Virus record (IMG/VR): IMGVR_UViG_3300037993_000206
Source: an uncultured virus (IMG/VR IMGVR_UViG_3300037993_000206)
Taxonomy: Duplodnaviria; Heunggongvirae; Uroviricota; Caudoviricetes
Length of the DNA: 24,750 nucleotides
Reading direction: 5' to 3' (one strand)
Each line of letters starts with the position of its first letter. Positions within the stretch are counted from its first letter, which is position 1. The position numbers were made by a program, and so were the translations under genes. This document shows, one piece after another, positions 1,085-21,786 of this stretch. A model generated the notes under the pieces. That model did no database searches, was not told the origin of the DNA, and saw nothing but the letters and a program-made list of their open reading frames with translations.

Positions 1085-1511
1085 ATATACTTGTCACGAT
1101 TGCGGTGCTAAAGAGGGAGAGTTACATCAAACAGGTTGTGATATGGAAAGATGCCCTTTTTGTGGCGGTCAATTAATTTCATGCGACTGTGTTTATAAAC
1201 TACTTAACATCGATAATTCCAAAGGGACATGGGCTTACGAACACGGTTTAACTAATGAACAATCCCAACAATGGGATAAGTTACTCAAAGCAAAGGGCTT
1301 AATACCTTACATAGTTGTACCTTTAAGATGTAAAATTTGCGGTGAAGAATGGCCTAACTTTTTTGGAGTAGAAGATGATATTTGGAAAAAGTATGTTATC
1401 CCTGAATTACAACATGAAATCCTTTGTAAACCTTGTTATAACCATCAAGTTAAACTATTTCCTAATGGTTGGCGAAATGCAAAATTGGTAAAAGAACCGG
1501 TAGGAGTTTAA
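1077..1511 (+). CDS. Cys-rich metal-binding phage protein
   Basis: CHDC…H…CDMERCPFCGGQLISCDC plus a second CKIC…CKPC. Confidence 0.8.
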   Translation: MRKYTCHDCGAKEGELHQTGCDMERCPFCGGQLISCDCVYKLLNIDNSKGTWAYEHGLTNEQSQQWDKLLKAKGLIPYIVVPLRCKICGEEWPNFFGVEDDIWKKYVIPELQHEILCKPCYNHQVKLFPNGWRNAKLVKEPVGV

Positions 1512-1515
1512 TTGT

Positions 1516-1695
1516 ATGTGCGACTACGAGACTTCTTATGCATTAGGAATAGGACTTATTATTATCGCAATATTTTGTGCAATATCTACGTTATTCTTTG
1601 CACTATTGCATGATAATCATTTCATTGTGACAATGGTCTTCATATTTATTACAGGTATACCAGGAACTTATTTAGTAAATAGAAAACCAGAGTAA
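1516..1695 (+). CDS. 59-aa two-TM membrane protein (not in ORF track)
   Basis: AGGAG at 1502-1506; MCDYETSYALGIGLIIIAIFCAISTLFFALLHDNHFIVTMVFIFITGIPGTYLVNRKPE*; fills the gap between genes. Confidence 0.7.
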   Translation: MCDYETSYALGIGLIIIAIFCAISTLFFALLHDNHFIVTMVFIFITGIPGTYLVNRKPE

Positions 1696-1700
1696 ATTTT

Positions 1701-2099
1701 ATGAATGATGCATATAGTAAACCTACAGACCATCTATCACAAATGAATCCGGTTGATATACAGCATTACGTACAGACTGACCTCGAAATCAGAATAGAAA
1801 ACGCATTAGGTAAAGGCAAAGAGAACGCCATTAAAATGCGTGAATTAAAACAAAAGTTAGGGTTAAAAACCGACCGGAAAATCCGTTTAGCAATCGCCAA
1901 TATGAGACTTCATAACATTGGTATCTTATCAGACACAACGCATGGTTATTGGTGCGATAGTTCCTACTCAGAATGTGAAGATTGGCTTAACTTCATGACC
2001 AGCTATATTGCAGACCTGGCGCATGAGATAAAGTGCATCAAAACCTATGCCGAAAATAAATACCATCGGGTTTATCAGTTACCTTTATTTTTAAAATAA
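1701..2099 (+). CDS. Winged-HTH-like phage protein
   Basis: GKENAIKMRELKQKLG…DRKIRLAIANMR…GYW pattern. Confidence 0.7.
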   Translation: MNDAYSKPTDHLSQMNPVDIQHYVQTDLEIRIENALGKGKENAIKMRELKQKLGLKTDRKIRLAIANMRLHNIGILSDTTHGYWCDSSYSECEDWLNFMTSYIADLAHEIKCIKTYAENKYHRVYQLPLFLK

Positions 2100-2103
2100 G
2101 GTA

Positions 2104-2138
2104 TTGACAAGTGATTAATCATATGGTAGTATTAAAGT
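2104..2138 (+). promoter_or_regulatory. Sigma70-type promoter, probably leaderless, with palindromic operator
   Basis: TTGACA (2104-2109), 17 bp, TGG-TAGTAT (-10 at 2127-2132), ATG 6 nt later with no SD; palindrome TGATTAATCA (2112-2121) in the spacer. Confidence 0.75.
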
Positions 2139-2339
2139 ATGGATAAAGAAGAAATTAAAGAATTGCGAAATATATTGGGTCTATCTCAACAGGAATTTGC
2201 TAATAAAATAGGTGTTGGGATTGCAACCATTACAAGATGGGAAATCGGTAAGTGTAAACCAAGTAGAATGGCTAACCGTAAATTAATCGCCATAAAACAT
2301 CGGACTAAAAAACTTATAATAAATAACGGGGGAATTTAA
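2139..2339 (+). CDS. XRE/Cro-family HTH regulator
   Basis: IKELRNILGLSQQEFANKIGVGIATITRWEIGKCKPS. Confidence 0.92.
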   Translation: MDKEEIKELRNILGLSQQEFANKIGVGIATITRWEIGKCKPSRMANRKLIAIKHRTKKLIINNGGI

Positions 2340-2734
2340 TGGATAGATTATTGAAAGACGCAACAGTACAAGAACTAAACCTTGAACTTATGAAGCGTGG
2401 AAGTTTTAACAGTTTTGATGGTGAAAAGATTGTTAAATCACTTCAAGACCATCCCGATTTATGGATAGGTGCTATGATGGTTCAAGAAAGTGTTGGGGAA
2501 CAAGACTTAATTTCATTAAGGGATATGAATAACCCTAAATATGGTTATGATGCTTGGAATATTGGAACTTTATTTATTTCAGCAAAACAAGGCAAAGAAA
2601 AAGAGCTTGAACAATTAGCTAAATCGGATGAATGGAGTGCGGATGAAATTGATTACATCAAACCTGATAAATTAGGTTCTATGTTAGGAACCGGACGACC
2701 TACATTCCAAGTATTAAGAGTTTGGTGGGACTAG
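2339..2734 (+). CDS. Hypothetical protein with C-terminal RVWWD
   Basis: TAATG coupling to the HTH gene; GGGGG RBS. Confidence 0.75.
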   Translation: MDRLLKDATVQELNLELMKRGSFNSFDGEKIVKSLQDHPDLWIGAMMVQESVGEQDLISLRDMNNPKYGYDAWNIGTLFISAKQGKEKELEQLAKSDEWSADEIDYIKPDKLGSMLGTGRPTFQVLRVWWD

Positions 2735-3835: not shown

Positions 3836-4015
3836 ATGGTCACACGTATTAAGACAGTTCCAAAGTGTAAGTATTGTGGTCGTGGGTATCTTTTAAAAGC
3901 CTCACCAGACGGAGTAGGATTTATTTGTGATAATGGTTGCAGTAATCCACCAGTTATACCACATATTAGTTACTATCCACAATCAACTTCTAAAGTTTAT
4001 GACAATCCAGAGTAG
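3836..4015 (+). CDS. 59-aa Zn-ribbon protein (not in ORF track)
   Basis: AAGGAG RBS; MVTRIKTVPKCKYCGRGYLLKASPDGVGFICDNGC…. Confidence 0.65.
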   Translation: MVTRIKTVPKCKYCGRGYLLKASPDGVGFICDNGCSNPPVIPHISYYPQSTSKVYDNPE

Positions 4016-4026
4016 GAGAATTTAAA

Positions 4027-4326
4027 ATGAAAGTTAAGTTGATGCTATTCTCTATTTTAATAATCAGTATTATTTTTATTGCAGGTTGTGGCGAAACTAT
4101 AAATAATGGTGCGAAACTTACTAATAATTCAACCTACGATAATGGTAGAAATTTAGTTTTTATAAATACTAACGATGTTAATTTACTATTAACCTTAACG
4201 CAAGCATGGATTGATGCTAACCCAAATAAGACTATTCTTTCTATGGCGACTACCCCTGCTGGGAAAGGTTTTGTTAGTAGTGGAAATTCTGTAACAGGGA
4301 ATGGTTTAATTATCTACTATAAGTAA
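4027..4326 (+). CDS. Putative lipoprotein
   Basis: Basic N-terminus, hydrophobic stretch, lipobox IAG-C; AGGAG RBS. Confidence 0.8.
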   Translation: MKVKLMLFSILIISIIFIAGCGETINNGAKLTNNSTYDNGRNLVFINTNDVNLLLTLTQAWIDANPNKTILSMATTPAGKGFVSSGNSVTGNGLIIYYK

Positions 4327-4337
4327 AGAGGTTTAAA

Positions 4338-4538
4338 ATGATCGGATTTTTAATTGGCGCAATTTTAGCAACTTTTATTACGCTATATTTTGCAAAGAAA
4401 GAAGTGAGGGACAAGGTTAATTTAAGTATTTTAGGGCTGATTGATAGGATAGGTAAGAAACCAGAACCTAAGAAGAAACCCAATAAAAGGATAGTCAAAC
4501 CAAAGTCTAAAGTCGAACCAAAGAAGCAAGAAAGTTAA
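4338..4538 (+). CDS. Small membrane-anchored protein with Lys/Pro-rich tail
   Basis: N-terminal TM segment; GAGG RBS. Confidence 0.7.
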   Translation: MIGFLIGAILATFITLYFAKKEVRDKVNLSILGLIDRIGKKPEPKKKPNKRIVKPKSKVEPKKQES

Positions 4539-4555
4539 GTTTAGGAGAAATAAAA

Positions 4556-4798
4556 ATGCAACCAAGATGCACTGAGTGTGGTAAATGAATTTCAAGTCCA
4601 AAACAGTTTCATCAATGTATGTGTGAAACGATAATTATGAACCAGACTGGGAAGATAATCGGCAAAGGGAAGTCAACGCAATTCCGATCATCGATTAGAA
4701 ACGCTAGTCGTCAAGCAAAAATTCCAGCAGGTAAAAAGAATAACCATTTCAGAGTAGTAACAACTACAATTATTGTAGAAGAAAACCGACAAAAATAA
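4556..4798 (+). pseudogene. 80-codon Zn-finger-like gene interrupted by TGA at codon 11
   Basis: AGGAG RBS; MQPRCTECGK*ISSPKQFHQCMC…; TGA at 4586-4588; frame stays open 69 more sense codons to TAA at 4796-4798. Confidence 0.6.
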
Positions 4799-4858
4799 GT
4801 AGGCAAAGTGCCTATCAACATATAAAGTTTAAAAAATAAAAAGTAGGAGAAAATTATT

Positions 4859-7075: not shown

Positions 7076-8260
7076 ATGGTAGAAACAAACAGCACTGGAT
7101 TAGCCACTATAGATGTAAAACCCGCAACCCCACCTGAAGGATTAACTGAATCCCAAATAAAAGACATCAATGCTCATGCCCAAAAATCAGTAGATACATT
7201 ACTCACTACTAAAGGTTCTGAAATGATGACAGCATCAGAACAAATAACCAATGTGGGGATTCAAGACCAAAAGACTATCTCAAATGGTATTGCTTTACTA
7301 CAAGAAAAAATGGGAGGTATATTTTACAGTAAGGACAAAAGTAATGTCACTGATAATATGAGTAAGGATATTACCGAATTACAAAATGTTCTCGCTAAGA
7401 TTAACCCTACAGATATTCAAAAAGAAGGACGCTATAGACTAATCCGTATAATTCCTTTCTTTGGAGATAAAATTGTTAATATTCTCAAAGAATCATCAAA
7501 TAAAGGAATGACTTTACAACAATTTGTTGAACATTTAGACGAAAGTTTAAAGACTGGCGAAACTATGTTACGACAAGATAATGCTCAATTAAAAGTTATG
7601 TATCAAGACCTTGAGGGAAAACAGAAATTAATCAACGCGGATGCCTATTTTGCAGAGGTCTTAATGGAAAAACTATCTGACGCAATCGCTACCACTACTG
7701 ATGAAAAAGTTAAAAATAATCTCAATAAAATCCTGTTTAAAGTAGCTACAAGAGCGCAAGATTTACGAGCCATGAATAATATCCATGAACAATTCTTTGT
7801 GAGTATTGAAATGGCAAGGGATAATAACGACCTACTAATTGATGGTGCGAGACGTATGATTACAATGGGTATGAATGTAGTCTATGTCTCAATGGCTATC
7901 CATACCGCACTTATTAGAGCTAAGAACGTAAAAGATGTTGAAGTAGGAACAGGTGAGTTTATTGGTAAAATGTTAGTCAGTAATGCAACAATCATTAATG
8001 GGATGGTTACTGAAATTGGTGACCTTTACAAACGACCATTTGTTTCAATGGAGATGATGGAAAAAGCTGTTGCCCAACTTGAACAAGCTATCGATTCAAC
8101 TAATAAATTAAAGGCAGAGGGAATTGAAAGAGCAAAAGAGAATATCGTAAAAATCAAGATAATGACCGATGAAATTAAAAACAAATCCGGCCAACTACCA
8201 GACAGCGATATTAAAAGCCTTGAAGCAAGTAAAACACTCTTATTAGATAGTGGCAAATAA
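7076..8260 (+). CDS. telA: Toxic anion resistance protein, TelA/KlaA family
   Basis: 394 aa, all-helical; L…KINP…IRIIPFFG, LRQDNAQLKVMY, RAQDL…QFFVSIEMARDNNDLLIDGARR follow the TelA pattern. Confidence 0.75.
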   Translation: MVETNSTGLATIDVKPATPPEGLTESQIKDINAHAQKSVDTLLTTKGSEMMTASEQITNVGIQDQKTISNGIALLQEKMGGIFYSKDKSNVTDNMSKDITELQNVLAKINPTDIQKEGRYRLIRIIPFFGDKIVNILKESSNKGMTLQQFVEHLDESLKTGETMLRQDNAQLKVMYQDLEGKQKLINADAYFAEVLMEKLSDAIATTTDEKVKNNLNKILFKVATRAQDLRAMNNIHEQFFVSIEMARDNNDLLIDGARRMITMGMNVVYVSMAIHTALIRAKNVKDVEVGTGEFIGKMLVSNATIINGMVTEIGDLYKRPFVSMEMMEKAVAQLEQAIDSTNKLKAEGIERAKENIVKIKIMTDEIKNKSGQLPDSDIKSLEASKTLLLDSGK

Positions 8261-8787: not shown

Positions 8788-9178
8788 ATTCCAACCTCCA
8801 GTACCATCCATCTTCTTTCTTAATTGCAGTTTGTTTTTTAATTAAATGCCCACGATATATTTGACCGGCGCACATTGTTTCATTTGGTCGAACACGATAG
8901 ATAGTTGCATCATCACTCCACCTGTAAGGCACATGTAAATATTGACAATTACGCCCAATAAAATAATCGTCCACATATACATCTGGTGCATGATAACCTT
9001 TTTCAGCAACTTGGCAAGCCATTGAACCTTTATGGGCATGGTCTAACCAATGTTTCTGAATGTCCTTACTTAAAACATGTGAATTATCCCAACAAAATTG
9101 CGACCAATCAAACTCTCGGCCAGGATAACCGCAAGCGGTAGAGTTATGCTTTGCGACTTTATAATCTTTAAACGCCAT
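8771..9178 (-). CDS. Hypothetical protein
   Basis: GGAG RBS, TAATG coupling to the upstream gene. Confidence 0.7.
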   Translation of the reverse strand: MAFKDYKVAKHNSTACGYPGREFDWSQFCWDNSHVLSKDIQKHWLDHAHKGSMACQVAEKGYHAPDVYVDDYFIGRNCQYLHVPYRWSDDATIYRVRPNETMCAGQIYRGHLIKKQTAIKKEDGWYWRLEFDETK

Positions 9179-9333
9179 TATTTTAAAGACTCCAAATACT
9201 TTTTCTCTTTATCAATAGCTTCGGATAGGTTCTCTATACCTAATTCAATATTATGTTTCAACTCTTTTAATGATGTTAGTCGTTTCTCCAAAAGATTAAG
9301 ATTATCTGTTACCGTTTCTTTCACAGTTCTCAT
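9178..9333 (-). CDS. 51-aa coiled-coil protein (not in ORF track)
   Basis: MRTVKETVTDNLNLLEKRLTSLKELKHNIELGIENLSEAIDKEKKYLESLK*; ATGA and TAATG overlaps on both sides. Confidence 0.65.
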   Translation of the reverse strand: MRTVKETVTDNLNLLEKRLTSLKELKHNIELGIENLSEAIDKEKKYLESLK

Positions 9334-9497
9334 TCTACAAACCCCAAAACAATTAATGTGATACCAACAATAATACGGATAACCCTTATATAATGGTCTT
9401 TATGCCATGTTTGGTTTTTATCTTTAATATAAAGTGAGATTGAAAACCATCCATCGGTCACATTCCACATACCGAACAATACTAACCATTTATCCAA
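9330..9497 (-). CDS. 55-aa membrane protein (not in ORF track)
   Basis: TTG start; MDKWLVLFGMWNVTDGWFSISLYI…HYIRVIRIIVGITLIVLGFVE*. Confidence 0.6.
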   Translation of the reverse strand: MDKWLVLFGMWNVTDGWFSISLYIKDKNQTWHKDHYIRVIRIIVGITLIVLGFVE

Positions 9498-12324
9498 CTA
9501 CTACCCCATTTTGAGAGAACATATCTTTCACATTTGCCATTAATTCGGCGAATTTTAAATTCTCAACCGCTACTTTAAAATATTCAGGTTTTAATTCAAT
9601 ACCAATAGCCTTACGTCCGAACTTTAAAGCGACATAAGCCTCACTACCAATCCCTAAAAATGGGGTTAGGATTGTTTCTTTTGGATTAGAGTACAATTTC
9701 ACACAACGCTCAATAGTCGCTAGTTGGAGAGGTGCCACATGTTTTTCGTCGTCGGCTGCTCTAGCGTTAGCAAATTGTAACGTATCTGTTTCTCTTATAC
9801 CGTCCCAAACACCATTCGCCCATTTAATCCATGTTTCATTATCAATATCACCATTTTTTACAGGCAAAACTGGACAGTCATTTTCACCATCTTTTTTAAA
9901 TAGTAATATTTGGTCAATTAATGCTGGGCGTGAATCACTTGAATCACGCCGGAGCGAAACAAAAAGTAATGCAGAACTATGTGTCCTAATCGCCTGGCTC
10001 TGCGGATTTTTTGGCACGAAGCATCTGCCATGTAATACCCATCCTTCTTTCTCAAACGCTCTAATAACCTCGCCTGGAAAATCTTTAATCCCAATATACC
10101 CATCTTTTTGTGCCATAGCAGGAATATCAGAAGTATGTACACACGCCAATCTACCTGGTTTAGTTACTCTTATCAATTCTTTAATAATAAATTTAAAGTG
10201 ACTAAAAAATTCAGTCCAATCTCGACTATTTCCTAAATCTCTTTCCGATGCTGAATATGTAAAAAGTTCGGCAAATGGAGGTGAAAATACACTCATATCA
10301 ATACAGTTATCGCTTAACTCTTTTAATCTCTCACACGAATCACCTAACATAGCAATAAAGTTTTCACCCTTTACTGTTTCAGTTTTATATTCAGATTTAA
10401 TTTGAGTATCCGATCCCAATTCTCCCTTTTCATAATCTCTTATTTGTTCAATTAAAGATGCTTTTAGTCGTCTAGCCATAGCATCTTTACGCATTACGTT
10501 TTGATAGATTTCAGTTTCAACATCATGTAAAATAAGATAAACATTTACGGGTTCTTTTTGACCGTAACGCCATTCACGCCGAATAGCTTGATAATAAGAT
10601 TCCCATGAATCATTTAATCCAAAAAATATCATATTGTGACAATGTTGCCAATTCATGCCAAACCCAAATATTTTTGTTTTAGTCAACATTATAGGTACAT
10701 TACCCTCACGCCATTCCGACTCTCTTTTTTCTTTTTCATCTGGCGTAAGAGAACCATACACACTAACACAATAATCGCCAAATATATTTTCTAAAAGATG
10801 CTGCTCTGCATCAAGTCCACACCACACTACCCACTTATTGTTCAAGATATTTAATTGCTTTTCTGAGTAATTCTGGACTATCTTTGAATTTTCCGATTCC
10901 GAAATTACAACTGGCGCATAGCAATCCACGGACAATGCCCGTTGCATGGTCATGGTCAACGTGGAGAGTTCCCCATCTATCTCTTTTACTTGCACTTGTT
11001 GAACCACAGATTGCACACTTCCCTTCTTGTTTATTAAAGATGGCATCATAGGATTCTCCGGTAAGTCCGTATTTTGATAGCCATTCTTCCCTTCGGTTTT
11101 TACCGTCCCGTTGTTTACGTGCTTCAAGTTCGTTTTCCCGATATGTTGAATCATTAGCATATCGTTCTCGCCGTCTGTCATTCCGTTTATTATTTTGTTC
11201 TGTTGTTCGCACGTATTTCCCCTTATGTTTAATGTAGTATTCGTGTTTATATTGTTGGTCTCGTTTAATTTGTTCTGGCGTTCTTCTATCATGCCATTCT
11301 TTAGATTGTTTGCGCAATTTATCTCGATTGGTAATATAATATGAGTGTCTATATTCTTTATTTGTGAATGGCATAATCTATCCTCATATATTAGATTAGA
11401 AGTTATAATATTAACACATTCTTTTAACTTTGGTAATATTGTATCCTTTCGTATTTTAGCCCTATCCCCAATTCCATGTAATTCTGTAAAAAATAATTGG
11501 TCGGTTGGCTTATAATCCGAACTAATGAAAATGGGTGTAATCTTTAATTCTGGCAGAATAAAACCATCATCGTCATACCCCAAATCAGATGGTTTTGTCA
11601 TTGTTATAGCCCACGAAGATAACCACTGAAAGAATGTTTTTTCAGCATGATGTTTTAAACGCCATTCAGTTCCATTTTTATTAGAACCTTTTTTACGATA
11701 CATTTTGCCTTCAATTTCAATCGTATGCTCTTTGTTGGCATTAATAAAGAAAGTTGCCAACATTTCAGACATTTTGCAAATACCTAAAAACTCTGTGTGA
11801 TTTCCTAACTCAATATAATCATTAGGGGCCGGAGTAGCAGTACAACACAGTTTATATTTAATTCCACTACATAACTCTGTAATTCGTTGTCGAATATGAC
11901 CGCCAACCGATTTCAAGATTGAACTTTCATCCAGAACAATCGCCCCAAACTTAGAATAGTCAAACGAATCAATCATTTCATAGTTTGTAATCCAAAGTTT
12001 GTTATCGCCAATAACTTCCGATTGACTACGAACATACTTAACTTCTAAATCTATTTCATGTGCCATTCTCACTGTTTGTCTGGCAACTGATAATGGCGCA
12101 ACGATTAGGGTATTTTCGCCCATTAACCTAGCCCATTCCAAAGATATGTACGTTTTCCCAAGTCCGGTGTCGAGAAACACAGCGGATAGACCTTTCTTTA
12201 AAGACCAAAGAGTTATATCTTTTTGCCAATCAAATAGTTTGGGGTGAATTAATTTTCGGTCTATAATTTTACCACAATCACCTACTTTATGTTGCTTAGT
12301 TGCAAGAAACTCTAAATATTCCAC
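9490..12324 (-). CDS. SF2 (SNF2-like) helicase fused to a beta-class N4/N6 DNA methyltransferase, with a ~190-aa insertion
   Basis: Helicase motifs DTGLGKT, LDESS, TATP, WVVWC, FGFGMNWQ, QAIRREWRYGQ; MTase catalytic SPPF before SAM-binding TPFLGIGS. Residues ~308-497 are the alternative-frame translation of the nested endonuclease. Confidence 0.9.
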   Translation of the reverse strand: MEYLEFLATKQHKVGDCGKIIDRKLIHPKLFDWQKDITLWSLKKGLSAVFLDTGLGKTYISLEWARLMGENTLIVAPLSVARQTVRMAHEIDLEVKYVRSQSEVIGDNKLWITNYEMIDSFDYSKFGAIVLDESSILKSVGGHIRQRITELCSGIKYKLCCTATPAPNDYIELGNHTEFLGICKMSEMLATFFINANKEHTIEIEGKMYRKKGSNKNGTEWRLKHHAEKTFFQWLSSWAITMTKPSDLGYDDDGFILPELKITPIFISSDYKPTDQLFFTELHGIGDRAKIRKDTILPKLKECVNIITSNLIYEDRLCHSQIKNIDTHIILPIEINCANNLKNGMIEERQNKLNETNNINTNTTLNIRGNTCEQQNKIINGMTDGENDMLMIQHIGKTNLKHVNNGTVKTEGKNGYQNTDLPENPMMPSLINKKGSVQSVVQQVQVKEIDGELSTLTMTMQRALSVDCYAPVVISESENSKIVQNYSEKQLNILNNKWVVWCGLDAEQHLLENIFGDYCVSVYGSLTPDEKEKRESEWREGNVPIMLTKTKIFGFGMNWQHCHNMIFFGLNDSWESYYQAIRREWRYGQKEPVNVYLILHDVETEIYQNVMRKDAMARRLKASLIEQIRDYEKGELGSDTQIKSEYKTETVKGENFIAMLGDSCERLKELSDNCIDMSVFSPPFAELFTYSASERDLGNSRDWTEFFSHFKFIIKELIRVTKPGRLACVHTSDIPAMAQKDGYIGIKDFPGEVIRAFEKEGWVLHGRCFVPKNPQSQAIRTHSSALLFVSLRRDSSDSRPALIDQILLFKKDGENDCPVLPVKNGDIDNETWIKWANGVWDGIRETDTLQFANARAADDEKHVAPLQLATIERCVKLYSNPKETILTPFLGIGSEAYVALKFGRKAIGIELKPEYFKVAVENLKFAELMANVKDMFSQNGVVVG
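10835..11374 (-). CDS. Endonuclease VII-family (His-Me finger) nuclease nested out of frame in the helicase-MTase gene
   Basis: KYGLT…Y…QEGKCAICG…LHVDHDHATGIVRGLLCASCNFGIGKFKDSPELLRKAIKYL; basic helical N-terminus; own SD GAGGA (11381-11385) 6 nt before the ATG. Confidence 0.93.
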   Translation of the reverse strand: MPFTNKEYRHSYYITNRDKLRKQSKEWHDRRTPEQIKRDQQYKHEYYIKHKGKYVRTTEQNNKRNDRRRERYANDSTYRENELEARKQRDGKNRREEWLSKYGLTGESYDAIFNKQEGKCAICGSTSASKRDRWGTLHVDHDHATGIVRGLLCASCNFGIGKFKDSPELLRKAIKYLEQ

Positions 12325-12546
12325 TTCGCCTAATCCTTTTAACCATCACTCTTTACCACTTATTTGCCTTTTCTAGTGGCATTAAATCGTTTTAAGGTAT
12401 CCAACTACCACCCCAACCTTTAACCCCTCTATTTTATTATGATTTCTAATAACGAAATTCTCTGACCATATAAAACATCGGGTAAAACTTTTTCATGTTA
12501 CTAATAAAGGATACATAAAGGAATTTTGACCGTAGAATGTAAATCC

Positions 12547-13014
12547 TTAAACTACATCATGGTTATTATAAGGGATTTTCTTTAAAGCAAGTTCCAAGAG
12601 TTGTCTGGGATTTAACTGGTAGACATTCAAGTAACCTTTTTCAATCATGCCTTGCCGGAAGATTTTAAGGAAAGTACCATGCACACGCTCCCAATGACTA
12701 ACTTCTAACTCTTTTACTACTTGTTTAAACTCCTGCCCTAATGTTTTAGGTTTTGCCTCTTGAGTTTTTTGTACTGGTTTTATAACACTCGGATTGAAGT
12801 GAGGATTAGGAACTTTCACTTTTACTTGTGGTTCTATTTTTGGCGCAACGACTGAAAGTTCTTGATTCGTAAACCATTGAATAACGCTATCAAATTGCAA
12901 CTGAAGTTTATGGTCGCCCTTATCCAAAACTGCAACAGATTTGGGGCCTAGTCCCTGTATTTCAAGTTTATAAGTTTTGCCTTTATGATAACTAGATAGA
13001 TTCTTTAATGCCAT
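12547..13014 (-). CDS. Hypothetical protein
   Basis: AAGGA RBS; 155-aa ORF in operon orientation. Confidence 0.7.
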   Translation of the reverse strand: MALKNLSSYHKGKTYKLEIQGLGPKSVAVLDKGDHKLQLQFDSVIQWFTNQELSVVAPKIEPQVKVKVPNPHFNPSVIKPVQKTQEAKPKTLGQEFKQVVKELEVSHWERVHGTFLKIFRQGMIEKGYLNVYQLNPRQLLELALKKIPYNNHDVV

Positions 13015-13755: not shown

Positions 13756-13784
13756 ATTTTACCATACTAGACTCTTAATGTCTA
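13756..13784 (-). promoter_or_regulatory. Sigma70-type promoter with overlapping dyad
   Basis: TAGACA (13784-13779), 17 bp, TGG-TAAAAT (13761-13756); inverted repeat TAGAC-N7-GTCTA at 13768-13784. Confidence 0.55.
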
Positions 13785-15575
13785 CACTTGATTATCATTA
13801 TTTTCGGGGTCACAAGATTCAACTTCTGTTACATCTCCTTTAAATAAAAATCGAAAGCCTAACGGGTTCTGATACCCATTGAAAGGTGGTGTTTTACGTT
13901 GATATAATGATAATTTCAGTTCTTTTGCGCCCTGTGACTGTAATTTAGACGCTTCCCATATAGACCTCGATAAATTTTCATAGAAAGCATTACCATAAAC
14001 CGTCTTGTGTGGATTATTTTTATCTTTTGCAGTATGAGCAATAATCAACGGTGTAATCGGTAATTGCCTTAATGCACTAAAGAAATTCATAGCTGGTTCT
14101 GAATCATTTAAATTCCCACCAACTGCTACACCTAAACTATCAATAATAGCTGTATCGGCATTTACCTCACTGATTTTCTTTTGAATTTGTGGTAGACATT
14201 TGGCAAGAGGTTGCGATAAGTGTAAGTATGGAGTTTCAAAATTAGAAAATCCAAATCCTTTTAGTAAACAATTTCTTTGCCAACCTGTTGTTTCAGGGTC
14301 ATTTTCCCAATCTAAGAACAATACATTATGTTCTTTACCAATATAAAGTCCATAGGCATCTACTCCTAAGGATAACATAATACTAATTAAATTCATAAAG
14401 AGGCTTTTAGCGGAGCTACGGTCTGCATAAATTATGTTGGGATTATTTTTTATAAATAAGGGATGTACCAAATATTCCGGTCTATTAAAACCGACACTAT
14501 CATTAAGCCAAACAATTTGTTCACCATCCCTAATTTTGGATAAACAAATAGTGGTAATCTGATTAACTATAGTAAACCAATCGTACTTTTTGTTAATTTT
14601 CCCTAAGACTTTCACCAAATTATCTTTATGTCCGATTGAAAGTAAGTTGTAAGATGAAATATACATCGGTTTGTCTTTCTCATAAACTGCAATTTCAACA
14701 GAGTCATCATTTTTAATATGGTCAATACCAATTCGTAAATTCAAACCAATCCAGTAAAACTCATACCCACCACAAATTATCTTAAGAACTGGTTCTGGAA
14801 CACCATTAGTCGTAATTAATTCGATTGCTTCTTTCTCAATTAATGCCGCTAAATCATGGTTACCAGTCTCTACCCATTCGGTTAAATCCTTACCCATTGG
14901 AAGAATTAATATTTTAAGAGACTTCACCATTGTTTTTAAAGATTCGACTTGCTTATTAGTAAATTTTAATCCTGGGTCGTCTTTATCTGGAATTAAAACC
15001 ACAACCGCATCTTTAAAATAGTTCTTATATTCATCTTTCCAATCAGATGCACCTCCCATTGTTGTTGTGACATAACCTAAAAGTTTTCCGGTTAAAGCGT
15101 CCTTTTCCCCTTCCACGTAAACTACTAACTTCCCTTGTTTCAATCCGTCAATTAATTCAGGATAATCAAACGGAATACCGCCAGTTGCAGACCAAACTAC
15201 TTTACCATCTTCACCAATAGTCCTTTGTCTAAAATCCTTTTTACCATCTGGTTTGCGATATTTAACTTTATCATGGTGATAACTACCGTCTGCATTACGG
15301 TATGTATAAATATTTGATGGTATTCGTTCATCATCCTCAAATAAATCCTTATAAGTCAATCCTAACGCTTTCAAAAAATCATCAGTTTGGCATCCAGCAA
15401 AGCATTTAAATGAAATTCCATTAGAATGTAAACCTAAAGATGCGCTTTTTCCTTTATCTCCATGTTTATGATTAACAATACAAGGACATTGAATTTGAGT
15501 AAACGCACCATGCCTTTTACCGACTACACACAAAGATAATATTCTTTCGTATTTTTGACCTAAAGATTCCGACAT
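13782..15575 (-). CDS. Primase-helicase (Zn-binding + TOPRIM + RecA/AAA-like domain)
   Basis: CPC…H…CFAGC; VEGEKDA and PDKD TOPRIM motifs; C-terminal YADRSSAKS (atypical Walker A), LFLDWE, IIDS, IIAH. Confidence 0.88.
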   Translation of the reverse strand: MSESLGQKYERILSLCVVGKRHGAFTQIQCPCIVNHKHGDKGKSASLGLHSNGISFKCFAGCQTDDFLKALGLTYKDLFEDDERIPSNIYTYRNADGSYHHDKVKYRKPDGKKDFRQRTIGEDGKVVWSATGGIPFDYPELIDGLKQGKLVVYVEGEKDALTGKLLGYVTTTMGGASDWKDEYKNYFKDAVVVLIPDKDDPGLKFTNKQVESLKTMVKSLKILILPMGKDLTEWVETGNHDLAALIEKEAIELITTNGVPEPVLKIICGGYEFYWIGLNLRIGIDHIKNDDSVEIAVYEKDKPMYISSYNLLSIGHKDNLVKVLGKINKKYDWFTIVNQITTICLSKIRDGEQIVWLNDSVGFNRPEYLVHPLFIKNNPNIIYADRSSAKSLFMNLISIMLSLGVDAYGLYIGKEHNVLFLDWENDPETTGWQRNCLLKGFGFSNFETPYLHLSQPLAKCLPQIQKKISEVNADTAIIDSLGVAVGGNLNDSEPAMNFFSALRQLPITPLIIAHTAKDKNNPHKTVYGNAFYENLSRSIWEASKLQSQGAKELKLSLYQRKTPPFNGYQNPLGFRFLFKGDVTEVESCDPENNDNQV

Positions 15576-15578
15576 ACG

Positions 15579-15737
15579 CTAAACCTCATGCCAATCTGTA
15601 CAATCTTTTAATAGTTTAACCAAATCTGATTTATCACGGCAAGAACAATGTCGAAATTCTTGATAGTGATAACAGTTAAGACATGTATGACTCTTGAAAA
15701 TAAAAGTCTTAATCCAAAGAATTAGTTTATTTAGCAC
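15579..15737 (-). CDS. 52-aa Cys-rich protein (not in ORF track)
   Basis: GTG start; …HTCLNCYHYQEFRHCSC…DCTDW; fills the gap between genes. Confidence 0.5.
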   Translation of the reverse strand: MLNKLILWIKTFIFKSHTCLNCYHYQEFRHCSCRDKSDLVKLLKDCTDWHEV

Positions 15738-16518
15738 GGTTACTTCTTCCCTTAAACTCTAATTGATGCCCTTTCGTCATTTCGTAAAGTCTATCTGCGG
15801 TTGCAAGTCCAACATATTCAGCTAACTCCACTAATGATTTATTTGTAGTTAAGATTAAAGATGTTTTGTTATTATATCGTTCATTCACAATTTGGAACAT
15901 AACTCTTTGATAAAAGTCTAAATTATTCGGAGTGTATTTCACTAAATCATCAATACAGAGAATTTTATATTTATCTAATTCGTTAAATATATCCCCCTCT
16001 GTTTTCTCGCTATCAGATTTAAAAGTATCTCTAATTTTATTTAAGAGGGTATATTCCTCTAATACATAAATACCGTCTGCTATATAATCTATATCAACTT
16101 CATTCCCCATAAATTGGACATTAATAGCTCTTTCAGATAACGCATATTCTTTAATTGCGGCATACATCAAATGAGTTTTACCTAATCCATAAGTATTTTT
16201 ACTCCATAAAATCATACTAACGAACTCATTATTCTCATTTCTAAACCCATTATCAGAGATTTGTTTTATCGCATTGAAGGGAATTAAATTATCCTTTTTG
16301 TCATAATTGTCAAATGTTGAATCTATAAATCTATCTGGAATATTTAATTTTGCCAACACATTTTGCTTCATTTTTGAAATAACAATATTGACAGTAGAAT
16401 TTAACATGCCAAAATTGGAGTTTGTATAACCACCCGTGTATCTAATATTAAGTGGTTGAATTATATCCTTATCAATTACTGTGTTCGGCAAATAGGTTTC
16501 CTTCTGTAACTTTTCCAT
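15727..16518 (-). CDS. DnaC/IstB-like AAA+ ATPase, helicase loader
   Basis: IPDRF..STFDNY, GLGKTHL, LCIDDL, IVNERY, ILTTN, DRLYEM, SNR; directly downstream of the initiator. Confidence 0.9.
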   Translation of the reverse strand: MEKLQKETYLPNTVIDKDIIQPLNIRYTGGYTNSNFGMLNSTVNIVISKMKQNVLAKLNIPDRFIDSTFDNYDKKDNLIPFNAIKQISDNGFRNENNEFVSMILWSKNTYGLGKTHLMYAAIKEYALSERAINVQFMGNEVDIDYIADGIYVLEEYTLLNKIRDTFKSDSEKTEGDIFNELDKYKILCIDDLVKYTPNNLDFYQRVMFQIVNERYNNKTSLILTTNKSLVELAEYVGLATADRLYEMTKGHQLEFKGRSNRAK

Positions 16519-17335
16519 TTTCTATTTCATCCTTCAACGACCTATGACCATTATTCCTAACACCTTTATTTTTTAACGGATAAACATCTGTATAATTATT
16601 TAAAGTAGATTGTTCTAATACCGCATTTGGTTCGTTACCAGAATCCCTTAATTTCATAAGTTCTTTAATAATTAAATCTTTAGCGTGTTCAGTTGGTATA
16701 GCCTTTTTCTTTCTTCGCATTTCTAAAAATGAGTCCCAAATATTTACATCAACCCAATCTGGTAAAACAAATAAATCTATTGCTTTTGTAATATTTGTTT
16801 TTGTATATTGCTTTTGTAATATTGTTATTGTATCTACCTCATTAGGTACTACCTGAGTACCTCGTTGGGTACTACCAAAGTCCTCATTAGGTACTACCTC
16901 ATTAGGTACTACCTCATTAGGTACTACCTCATTAGGTACTACCTCATTAGGTACTACCTCATTAGGTACTACCTGGCTTTTAGCGTCTTTAATTTGTTCT
17001 TTAAAATCATCATCTAACTCACTTGATTTATCCCATGTCTCAAAGTTTTTTTGGAATTGATATTGGATAATTTTTGGTTGTAACCGATTTATAATAATTA
17101 AATTTCGATGTTCTAATAATTGAAGCGTTCTCGGGATATGGTGAATACTGATATTAGTAGCAGTTGACCATTGGCTGAGACTGATAACATCCGATTTTTT
17201 ATTCCATCCGTATGTTTTTCTCCATAAAGTATGAAGTATGCGACTTTCATAATCTGTAAGTTTTATCATACAAAGGTGTTCGATTATTTCATTGGCTATA
17301 GCTGTATAGCCATTTTCCTTTTGGGGGTTTGCCAT
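16472..17335 (-). CDS. Lambda O-like replication initiator
   Basis: MANPQKENGYTAIANEI…RKTYGWNKKSDVISLSQ; central repeats; C-terminal LPDWV…W..FLEMR domain. Confidence 0.92.
   Translation of the reverse strand: MANPQKENGYTAIANEIIEHLCMIKLTDYESRILHTLWRKTYGWNKKSDVISLSQWSTATNISIHHIPRTLQLLEHRNLIIINRLQPKIIQYQFQKNFETWDKSSELDDDFKEQIKDAKSQVVPNEVVPNEVVPNEVVPNEVVPNEVVPNEDFGSTQRGTQVVPNEVDTITILQKQYTKTNITKAIDLFVLPDWVDVNIWDSFLEMRRKKKAIPTEHAKDLIIKELMKLRDSGNEPNAVLEQSTLNNYTDVYPLKNKGVRNNGHRSLKDEIENGKVTEGNLFAEHSN
16778..16823. repeat. AT-rich 18-bp direct repeat next to the iterons (possible unwinding element)
   Basis: TATTGCTTTTGTAATATT at 16778-16795 and 16806-16823. Confidence 0.7.
16837..16974. repeat. 15-bp iteron-like array (CCTCATTAGGTACTA), probable replication origin
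   Basis: Six perfect tandem copies at 16882-16971, one perfect copy at 16837-16851 and one variant CCTCGTTGGGTACTA at 16860-16874; encodes (VVPNE)n. Confidence 0.9.
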
Positions 17336-20760: not shown

Positions 20761-21786
20761 TTATTTATGAGTAGGTGGTTCTACATTACTATTTAACATT
20801 ACACCCTTTCCTTGACAGTGTGGGCAATCAATAAGTGGTTCATTGATGTAATCTATAAGTTCTTTTAAGTAGGCATCAATTTGTTCTTTTAATTCAGTTT
20901 CATTGTTTGCTACAAATCCCTTAATGGGTGTATAACCGTTATATTTATCTTTCTCGCTTGTCATTTCAAATACTTTGACTTCACGACTTGATACTAAACG
21001 AGTTTCAACAATAGGTTTGCGTCTGCGATTATAACCAGGGTGTTTAGTATAAGTTTGTTCAAATGGTTTAGTTATCCCTACAATTTTAGCAACTTCAAAA
21101 CAGAAATTATAATCAGAAGTTACCTTTGCATATTTAGGATTGATATTAAGTTTGATATAATTCCGTATTAAGTTATAAGTATCTTCCGATGAAAGTCTAC
21201 AAGGTGTTTCATGTAATAAGATAGTTGGGAAAATAATTTTATCCAGCACTTGATGTTCGATTCTACTATTAGTAATAAACGCAGGTTTGAACTCATGGTC
21301 AATCCATAAAGGATTATCGGGATATTTGATCCCTGTTGGTGGTTTAATCTCTGGTACTTTAAATAATACCTTAAAATCAAATTCTTCTTCTACTTCTTTA
21401 TCCGGTTGTGGGTCTGAAATTTCTTGATAAAGTGAACGATACATCGCAAGTTCTTCTTTCCAGATAAAATTTCCTTCACAATCTTTTGCGCCAGCATCCT
21501 CACTTTTAATTTCAAGTGGAAGTTTCTTAGACTTTAAAGTATCATCCTTTAAAATAAACCTGTAATTAATATTGGGTTGACGTTCTATATGTGAAACTTT
21601 AAATGGGATAGTTGGAATAAAACTCCAATCAGGGTGGAAAGTATCAGTAGCTTTTAGTCTATTGAATAATTTATTATCTAACCTACGGTTATAACTGTAA
21701 CCACCATCAGGAAACCGACTAACATAAAAACCTTTATCAGTTTCGATTGCGATAATTTGTAAAATATCCTTTTTAGTATCTTCCAT
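20761..21786 (-). CDS. Hypothetical phage protein with C-terminal CPHCQGKG
   Basis: 341-aa ORF, GAGGA RBS. Confidence 0.85.
   Translation of the reverse strand: MEDTKKDILQIIAIETDKGFYVSRFPDGGYSYNRRLDNKLFNRLKATDTFHPDWSFIPTIPFKVSHIERQPNINYRFILKDDTLKSKKLPLEIKSEDAGAKDCEGNFIWKEELAMYRSLYQEISDPQPDKEVEEEFDFKVLFKVPEIKPPTGIKYPDNPLWIDHEFKPAFITNSRIEHQVLDKIIFPTILLHETPCRLSSEDTYNLIRNYIKLNINPKYAKVTSDYNFCFEVAKIVGITKPFEQTYTKHPGYNRRRKPIVETRLVSSREVKVFEMTSEKDKYNGYTPIKGFVANNETELKEQIDAYLKELIDYINEPLIDCPHCQGKGVMLNSNVEPPTHK

Follow-up and report, generated by a model that had tools for sequence, protein, structure and literature searches.

Homing endonucleases were believed to spare the gene that hosts them only when housed in an intron, an intein or an intergenic site. 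How can a homing-endonuclease gene instead lie directly within the coding sequence of another protein? This question is raised by a 24,750-nt stretch of DNA (the window) from an uncultured virus assigned to Caudoviricetes (IMG/VR record IMGVR_UViG_3300037993_000206), an AT-rich phage recovered from a peat metagenome. In the window, a gene for a nuclease of the endonuclease VII (Endo VII) type is embedded in a gene for an SNF2-like helicase fused to a DNA methyltransferase. It lies on the same strand in a different reading frame, and the host frame continues through it without a stop codon. It is very probable, in our view, that a homing-endonuclease gene of the free-standing type has settled in the helicase–methylase coding sequence, and that the host is read straight through.

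The insert adds about 555–558 nt, which is a multiple of three, and both flanks are in the same frame with no stops (Table 1). The insertion point lies just upstream of the invariant W501, where the match to RecA lobe 2 begins. The nested open reading frame (ORF) fills nearly the whole insert: its ATG is found about 20 nt past the first insert codon, and its TAA stop (10835–10837) straddles host codons N496 and K497. The nested protein matches Pfam Endonuclease_7 (E 3.8e-27, 94.4 bits against a cut-off of 23.6) as well as seven PHROG endonuclease VII families. It carries the full Endo VII/DHHRN motif set, defined as CX2C, DHDH, R, CX2C and N (PMC6083498), and its core residues are all invariant in the nuclease alignment (A1) except D142. 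The two frames are one base out of step, such that nuclease codon position 1 is host codon position 3, and each host codon is made up of nested positions 2 and 3 and the next position 1. Read in the host frame, the insert is rich in Asn, Ile, Leu, Glu, Thr, Gln and Lys.

The identity of the host is supported by Pfam matches to Helicase_C (residues 506–588, E 1.9e-10, above the cut-off) and N6_N4_Mtase (residues 675–920, E 7e-19), together with a weak match to SNF2-rel_dom (residues 33–192, 20.9 bits against a cut-off of 24.9). A profile built from 34 host homologues matches the SNF2/Rad54-family core (PDB 1z63, E 2e-18), and the host protein also matches PHROG families of DNA helicases and methyltransferases. 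It carries every invariant column of the host alignment (A2), of which it is itself one row, including GLGK (G54, G56, K57) and DES (D132–S134). Contigs from four other sequencing runs match the stretch; a junction is spanned without any mismatch by four of these contigs and with one mismatch by another, and the arrangement is therefore not an assembly artefact.

Table 1. Features of the interrupted helicase–methylase gene and its nested endonuclease (positions in the window).
Feature	Position	Strand	Basis or remark
SNF2-like helicase fused to N6/N4 DNA methyltransferase	9490..12324	-	944 aa, single open frame across the insert
Host residues 1–310: RecA-like lobe 1 and helical region, up to the insertion point (..NIITSN)	11395..12324	-	alignments
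Insert in the host frame, host residues 311–496, ~186 aa	10837..11394	-	ends accurate to a few bases only
Nested homing-endonuclease gene, Endo VII (DHHRN) type, 179 aa	10835..11374	-	PF02945, PHROG
Shine–Dalgarno (SD)-like GAGGA, 6 nt upstream of the nested ATG	11381..11385	-	encodes host Glu-Asp
TAG closing the endonuclease frame one codon upstream of the ATG	11378..11380	-	sequence
Catalytic/zinc core: C120-x2-C123, D140-H141-D142-H143, R149, C153-x2-C156, N157	10904..11017	-	translation
Mosaic segment, host residues 497–560, directly downstream of the insert	10645..10836	-	putative co-conversion tract

A stop in the host frame can arise only where a nuclease codon NTA is followed by A or G, or NTG by A. 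This rule, stated in an earlier sequence-only reading of the window, holds by the geometry of the frames. The same reading had argued from synonymous codon choice that the open host frame is unlikely to be accidental, and a recount of the 21 Leu, Ile and Val codons of the nested gene returned its figures. NTA or NTG (together NTR) occupies 0 of the 11 sites before a purine and 6 of the 10 before a pyrimidine, and the four Leu codons before a purine are, as described, all CTT or CTC (CTT, CTT, CTC, CTT). TTA is indeed common elsewhere, supplying 53% of the 526 Leu codons in the other window ORFs, and it supplies one of the ten in the nested gene. The one-sided Fisher value of about 0.004 attached to these counts is arithmetically exact (0.00387), but it overstates the case, both because the empty cell was forced by an open frame that had already been noticed and because the test pools Ile with Leu. 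Ile codons are 74% NTY (T- or C-ending) genome-wide and make up six of the 11 risky sites.

The departure from chance survives better null models, though on the window alone it is less strong than a value of 0.004 implies. When synonymous codons are permuted within each amino acid, the frame stays open with a probability of 0.063 or 0.060 (two runs). Shuffling with the codon usage of the window genes, as the sequence-only reading proposed, leaves it open with a probability of 0.00035 (mean 5.5 stops), and recoding with the usage of 74 AT-rich free-standing Endo VII fragments gives 0.0009. The other window ORFs show no natural avoidance of this kind, with NTR at 458 of 845 Leu/Ile/Val sites before a purine. 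In the same phase, the 26 other ORFs have 8.1 stops per 100 codons, and their longest stop-free run is 81 codons. On the window alone, selection on the host frame is likely, though unproven.

That the open frame is not due to chance rests mainly on comparative evidence. Relatives were found by searches with the host protein, the nuclease and nuclease alignments, and the insert-bearing set was chosen by homology and flank, not by openness. The best phage matches to the nested protein come from the Gordonia phages Malisha and Squiddly. In both, a gene that carries no annotation beyond 'DNA helicase' and precedes a methylase gene encloses a homologous ORF, and the relative phase of the two frames is that of the window. 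The same inter-lobe site is occupied by the same element in 38 helicase-flanked fragments, representing 37 distinct sequences (90% identity), 34 clusters at 70% identity and 26 at 60%. In 36 of the 37 distinct sequences, no stop interrupts the host frame within the nuclease gene. Across 6153 codons, 8 host-frame stops are seen against the roughly 225 expected from the stop density of GC-matched free-standing genes, and all 8 fall in a single locus, L138.

The controls for this comparison were 320 free-standing Endo VII fragments, binned by GC content. The corresponding phase is open in 0 of 74 fragments with a GC content below 0.45, 1 of 74 at 0.45–0.55, 9 of 88 at 0.55–0.65 and 24 of 84 above 0.65. 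Comparison with free-standing genes had been suggested by the sequence-only reading, and the complete absence of open frames among the AT-rich ones bears out its expectation. A scan of genome contigs yielded 80 loci, mostly actinobacterial and none of them helicase-flanked, which also served as controls. L178 was considered as a second closed case and rejected, since its free-standing nuclease lies ~1.2 kb from an unrelated intact helicase; it was moved to the controls. L193, L241 and L242 were rejected as nested cases, being likewise free-standing.

The nested loci fall into two frame classes. In 32 of them, the window included, the host codon starts from nuclease position 2 (offset 1), and in the other five it starts from position 3 (offset 2). 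All loci except L138 are open only in their own host frame, while the other frame has 1–29 stops. Among Leu/Ile/Val codons of 30 offset-1 loci (window excluded), NTR is used at 10 of 309 sites before a purine, compared with 99 of 230 before a pyrimidine; the AT-rich free-standing fragments use it at 475 of 859 and 281 of 536 sites, respectively. In the offset-2 class, T-ending codons account for 0 of 71 NNY codons before AA, AG or GA, compared with 102 of 246 elsewhere, and the 320 free-standing fragments give 1935 of 4826 and 5314 of 12,950. As a reciprocal control, offset-2 loci use NTR freely before purines (38 of 49). Stop avoidance is thus specific to both the context and the frame class. 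Within-gene synonymous permutation gives p < 0.05 in 13 of the 37 loci (Fisher combined p 5e-13, L138 included). The test is weak in many loci because risky codons have been purged altogether, and shuffles of GC-rich relatives remain open 40–90% of the time. Together with the open frames of the relatives, these patterns support the suggestion of the sequence-only reading that ribosomes probably translate through the insert.

Host-frame stops between intact flanks, which that reading had named as evidence against it, do exist, but only once, and in a gene that is split and has a restart codon. L138 (GC 0.35) has 8 host-frame stops in 180 codons, which is the density of free-standing genes. Its N-terminal helicase ORF (1456..2385) ends just past the insertion point, the nuclease frame runs up to 2990, and the C-terminal ORF starts from a TTG at 2959 that overlaps the nuclease end. 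To judge from its sequence, this locus shows that stops accumulate once read-through is lost. L138 also lacks a methylase gene after the helicase, and has in its place a 324-aa ORF (3853–4827, - strand) that resembles, by eye, an IS200/IS605 TnpB-type protein. Its nuclease carries an N-terminal CxxC...CxxC module resembling a zinc ribbon (2376–2540), which is shared with the free-standing L178 (2839–2960) and missing from the window nuclease.

The open frame could, in principle, reflect chance, or a state inherited from a GC-richer donor and no longer under selection, in which case the helicase here may be inactive or work as pieces. This account can draw on the within-gene permutation value of only ~0.06, on a GC content of ~38% for the element against ~33% for the window, on the scarcity of TTA in the nested gene, on the ease with which shuffled GC-rich relatives stay open and on the existence of a split arrangement. 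We nevertheless give it very little weight. Three further loci with a GC content below 0.45 (L426, L401 and L398) are open too, and the four AT-rich loci together would be expected to contain about 35 stops. None of the 74 AT-rich free-standing relatives is open, and recoding with their usage leaves 0.09% of sequences open. Within the nested gene, NTR use is genome-like at safe positions and fails only at risky ones. The host flanks, in an alignment that includes the window itself, keep every invariant column, and the sole closed locus has the stop density of a free-standing gene. Alternatively, the insert might be removed by an unrecognised self-splicing RNA, an atypical intein or ribosomal bypass, leaving a mature helicase without it. 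When homing endonucleases occur in coding sequence, they are usually housed in introns or inteins, and out-of-frame Endo VII-like endonucleases have been described within actinophage inteins (bioRxiv 10.1101/2025.01.02.630785). The sequence-only reading took the open frame to speak against removal from the RNA. This part of its argument stands, as neither RNA splicing nor bypass would select for openness; an intein, however, also needs an open frame and would explain such selection equally well. An intein is instead excluded because the host-frame peptide is unconserved, leaving no conserved splicing blocks, because a Pfam search of the host protein reveals neither a Hint nor an intein domain, and because the insert is followed by Lys. 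An intein would need Cys, Ser or Thr at this +1 position and a His-Asn end, whereas the insert starts with Leu and ends in ..ILNN, so neither junction offers a splicing nucleophile. The nuclease ORF leaves just ~20 nt of the insert uncovered, the local RNA shows no sign of structure, and an Rfam scan of positions 9000–13000 (E ≤ 1) found no intron, its one hit being a chance RNase P fragment that lies beyond the insert. The authors of the ShiLan study describe the same negative result for their element (PMC11855218). By both tests the element appears to have neither intron nor intein, and removal of the insert has only a very slim prospect of being correct.

The third alternative is that the translated segment is a functional overprinted domain, such as a regulatory or interaction module, rather than a passive spacer. 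Its retention over long divergence favours this idea, as does its position between the motor lobes, where its length could affect coupling. Moreover, some eukaryotic SNF2 enzymes (Ino80, Swr1) have large functional inserts in the ATPase domain. The peptide itself gives little sign of such a role. Since third positions are near saturation (codon position 3 identity 0.38), identity per position and per frame was used in place of a formal dN/dS. In the offset-1 class, amino-acid identity is 49% in the nuclease frame, 24% in the host frame and 25% in the unused frame; in the offset-2 class, the values are 41.5%, 23% and 24%. Different lineages use two different frames of the same nuclease gene as the spacer, and 63 of 66 homologous genes lack the segment. 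The host-frame insert peptide has no match to a PHROG family, and its composition simply follows GC content, being Asn/Ile-rich in the window and Ser/Thr/Ala-rich in GC-rich loci. A frame that is kept open while its sequence is not conserved points to a spacer, not a domain, and a functional domain seems most improbable. Of the 'overprinted peptide' proposed by the sequence-only reading, a translated segment between the lobes is retained as the probable state, and the segment is best regarded as a passive spacer.

Read-through of a directly inserted gene would work as follows. The element consists of the nuclease gene and a leader of ~18–20 nt with its own putative ribosome-binding site. Selection purges the NTA-before-purine and NTG-before-A junctions that stop the host frame, and with these risky junctions removed, helicase ribosomes could read straight through. 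In crossing the insert, they would add a polar stretch of ~186 aa, unconserved in sequence, as a spacer between the lobes; internal initiation at GAGGA-N6-ATG would yield the nuclease as a separate product. It presumably cleaves insert-free alleles close to this conserved site, and recombinational repair would then copy the element along with some flanking sequence. Both the cleavage specificity and the function of the interrupted helicase are presumed in this scheme. The TAG just before the ATG means that the nuclease needs its own initiation and could not be produced as a frameshift fusion from further upstream; an in-frame stop 0–6 codons before the nuclease start is found in 26 of 36 related loci. 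An SD-like motif precedes the nuclease start in 21 of these 36, compared with 22% of random 15-nt windows. The RNA around the nuclease start is predicted to be unstructured (z 0.79). Between positions 10700 and 12500, five promoter-like sites were found against 7.2 expected, none of them above chance, and a terminator scan found none.

Several observations weigh against this explanation. Read-through, internal initiation and the absence of splicing are all deduced from sequence; a search of sequencing runs turned up no RNA run containing the stretch. Within the window, the position-specific signal is marginal (p ~0.06), and a foreign, GC-richer source of the element may account for much of its departure from genome codon usage. 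A charge–hydropathy plot does not mark the insert as disordered, nor does it separate it from folded domains, and a quick, poorly resolved nuclease tree places the window gene outside the main nested clade. L138 suggests that the helicase may tolerate a split at the insertion site, so that read-through would not be the sole viable state. Lastly, 15 of the 36 related loci have no SD-like motif, and most of these share a conserved leader, GTGCTAAACTGGCAnC, in its place, so that SD-driven initiation is a candidate mode for the nuclease.

In about a dozen of the SD-less insert-bearing loci (L001, L233, L237, L234, L405 and others, with L418, L420, L403 and L411 in the same group), the leader reads GTGCTAAACTGGCA(A/G)C and lies in the 16 nt directly 5' of the ATG. 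Loci of this type have a TAA in the nuclease frame three codons upstream of the ATG. Candidate roles for the leader are an initiation signal, a part of the mobile unit or a part of the target site.

Most host genes of this family lack the element. Among 66 host loci from IMG/VR, 63 are insert-free, with 9–27 nt between the flank marks, two carry an Endo VII insert and one (L105) is odd. The closest relatives of the window host (L084, L086 and L131, at 63, 59 and 65% identity) are all insert-free. L105, an insert-free relative, shows a frame change and a gap of 56 nt where the insert would lie; its continued frame contains 13 stops, and the locus may represent the scar of an element loss or a sequencing error. 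In the window's own population, contigs from four DNA runs, at low depth, contain no joint that skips the insert, which speaks neither for nor against an insert-free allele there.

The flanks of the insert are mosaic. For host residues 1–300 and 561–660, the top nine matches are the same insert-free relatives (61–73% and 53–66% identity, respectively). For residues 497–560, directly downstream of the insert, 11 of the 12 top matches are insert-bearing hosts (best L135, 58%), while the close relatives reach 34–40%. Apart from L105, all of the top matches to this segment carry the insert. Malisha and Squiddly show a discontinuity at the nucleotide level, with a single difference over ~800 nt centred on the insert and mostly 7–26 differences per 100 nt elsewhere in the helicase and methylase genes. 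This pattern indicates recent homing with co-conversion, as far as sequence comparison can tell. Holliday, which is ~78% identical to Malisha in this gene and has no element, is too diverged at the nucleotide level to fix the insert ends.

Elements of this kind were already published in 2025, and the window element is a well-supported further example rather than a new principle. The ShiLan domain, which occurs in methylases of mycobacteriophages, is a hidden HNH endonuclease encoded out of frame. It starts 18 bp into the insert and has its TAA among the final four bases, and neither an intron nor an intein could be identified (PMC11855218). As described there, it shares with the window element an insertion directly into coding sequence with no detectable intron or intein and no added host-frame stop, a nuclease in another frame of the same strand that starts ~18 bp in and ends with a TAA at the insert end, a disjunct distribution among related phages and a host-frame product that is unrecognisable. 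The two differ in several respects. The window site lies between the helicase lobes, not in a methylase, and its nuclease is an Endonuclease_7 (DHHRN) enzyme, whereas that of ShiLan is an HNH enzyme with zinc fingers. The window phage is an AT-rich phage from a peat metagenome, whereas ShiLan is an actinophage, and a clear SD sequence precedes the window ATG, whereas for ShiLan no ribosome-binding site was found and leaderless GTG initiation was proposed. The main text of that report contains no occurrence of Malisha, Squiddly, Gordonia, 'endonuclease VII' or 'synonymous'. The present analysis adds tests at the codon level, the division into two frame classes and the split variant.

A different hidden out-of-frame nuclease was reported in Pacc40 gp60 (PMC11855218, section 3.6). 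This protein belongs to the same helicase–methylase family (tblastn of the window host parts, 32–33% identity, E 8e-15 to 4e-38) and, like the window host, has an out-of-frame nuclease ORF under an open host frame. Its insert, however, follows ..RPSDI inside lobe 1, and its nuclease is 159 aa long and, by eye, not Endo VII-like. A further insert of ~330 aa, from CLARGS.. to ..VVKN before a Cys, is found in the methylase part of this protein (L393, residues ~932–1263) and appears intein-like by eye. In another relative, L141 (2747–3502), and likewise in L142, the helicase and methylase genes are separated by a free-standing endonuclease gene of the HNH_3/NUMOD4 type. Taken with Pacc40 and ShiLan, this arrangement makes the helicase–methylase module look like a homing-endonuclease hotspot.

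Other known systems share parts of this organisation. The F-CphI/DHHRN family, as described by Fang et al. (2018, PMC6083498), has the same CX2C, DHDH, R, CX2C and N motifs and the same C-terminal Endo VII core behind a basic N-terminal region. F-CphI is free-standing beside its target gene, whereas the window gene, read from sequence alone, appears to lie inside the coding sequence of its target. In the accounts given by Edgell, Gibb and Belfort (2010, PMC2988022), mobE in Aeh1 nrdA and mobA in T4 gene 39/60 are free-standing endonuclease genes that split their hosts. Like the window element, they occupy functionally important coding regions without an intron or intein. L138 has exactly the layout of the split Aeh1 nrdA, whereas the host remains unsplit in the window and all but one of the 36 other distinct sequences. 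The elements within actinophage inteins (bioRxiv 10.1101/2025.01.02.630785), as presented in that preprint, likewise combine an Endo VII-like nuclease, a shifted frame and an open host frame; unlike them, the window element has no Hint domain and no splicing residues.

These results have implications for how mobile nucleases can coexist with coding sequence. Purifying selection on a second frame is enough to spare the host gene, as indicated by the 8 stops seen where ~225 were expected. Nested nucleases are invisible to gene callers, which matters for annotation. The loci are also a clean example from nature of two frames under constraint at once, one of which has merely to remain open, and they could be used to calibrate detectors of overlapping genes. 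As Malisha and Squiddly are cultivable with the element and Holliday is available without it, read-through, internal initiation and homing are directly testable. A broader proposal is that read-through spacers represent a general and evolvable third way beside introns and inteins. The same nuclease gene serves as a spacer in two phases, with codon usage re-tuned to each, and the host gene may outlive a loss of read-through as a split gene, as in L138. Host-frame ribosomes must cross the SD sequence and ATG of the nuclease, and helicase translation may consequently throttle nuclease initiation. If so, a toxic gene would come with a control of its own, one that requires neither RNA structure nor a promoter. 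This wider proposal, throttling included, seems to us unlikely as a whole.

The window surroundings form a phage replication module, as shown by domain search. It includes a Toprim and AAA_25 primase–helicase, a DnaA/IstB-like (DnaC-like) loader and a Phage_rep_O protein (13782–17335, - strand), and Sipho_Gp157, DUF1643 and YopX are situated further along. This gene content suggests a siphovirus-like phage or prophage whose host has a low GC content. When phage records were searched at the nucleotide level with the helicase–methylase gene, a single weak match of 118 nt was returned. On the opposite strand, a TelA-like protein of the toxic anion resistance family (E 4e-30; 7076–8260, + strand) adjoins the replication module. 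Further along, a 341-aa ORF (20761–21786, - strand) matches Pfam Gad1 (Gabija anti-defence 1) with an E-value of 2e-69, covering the full profile.

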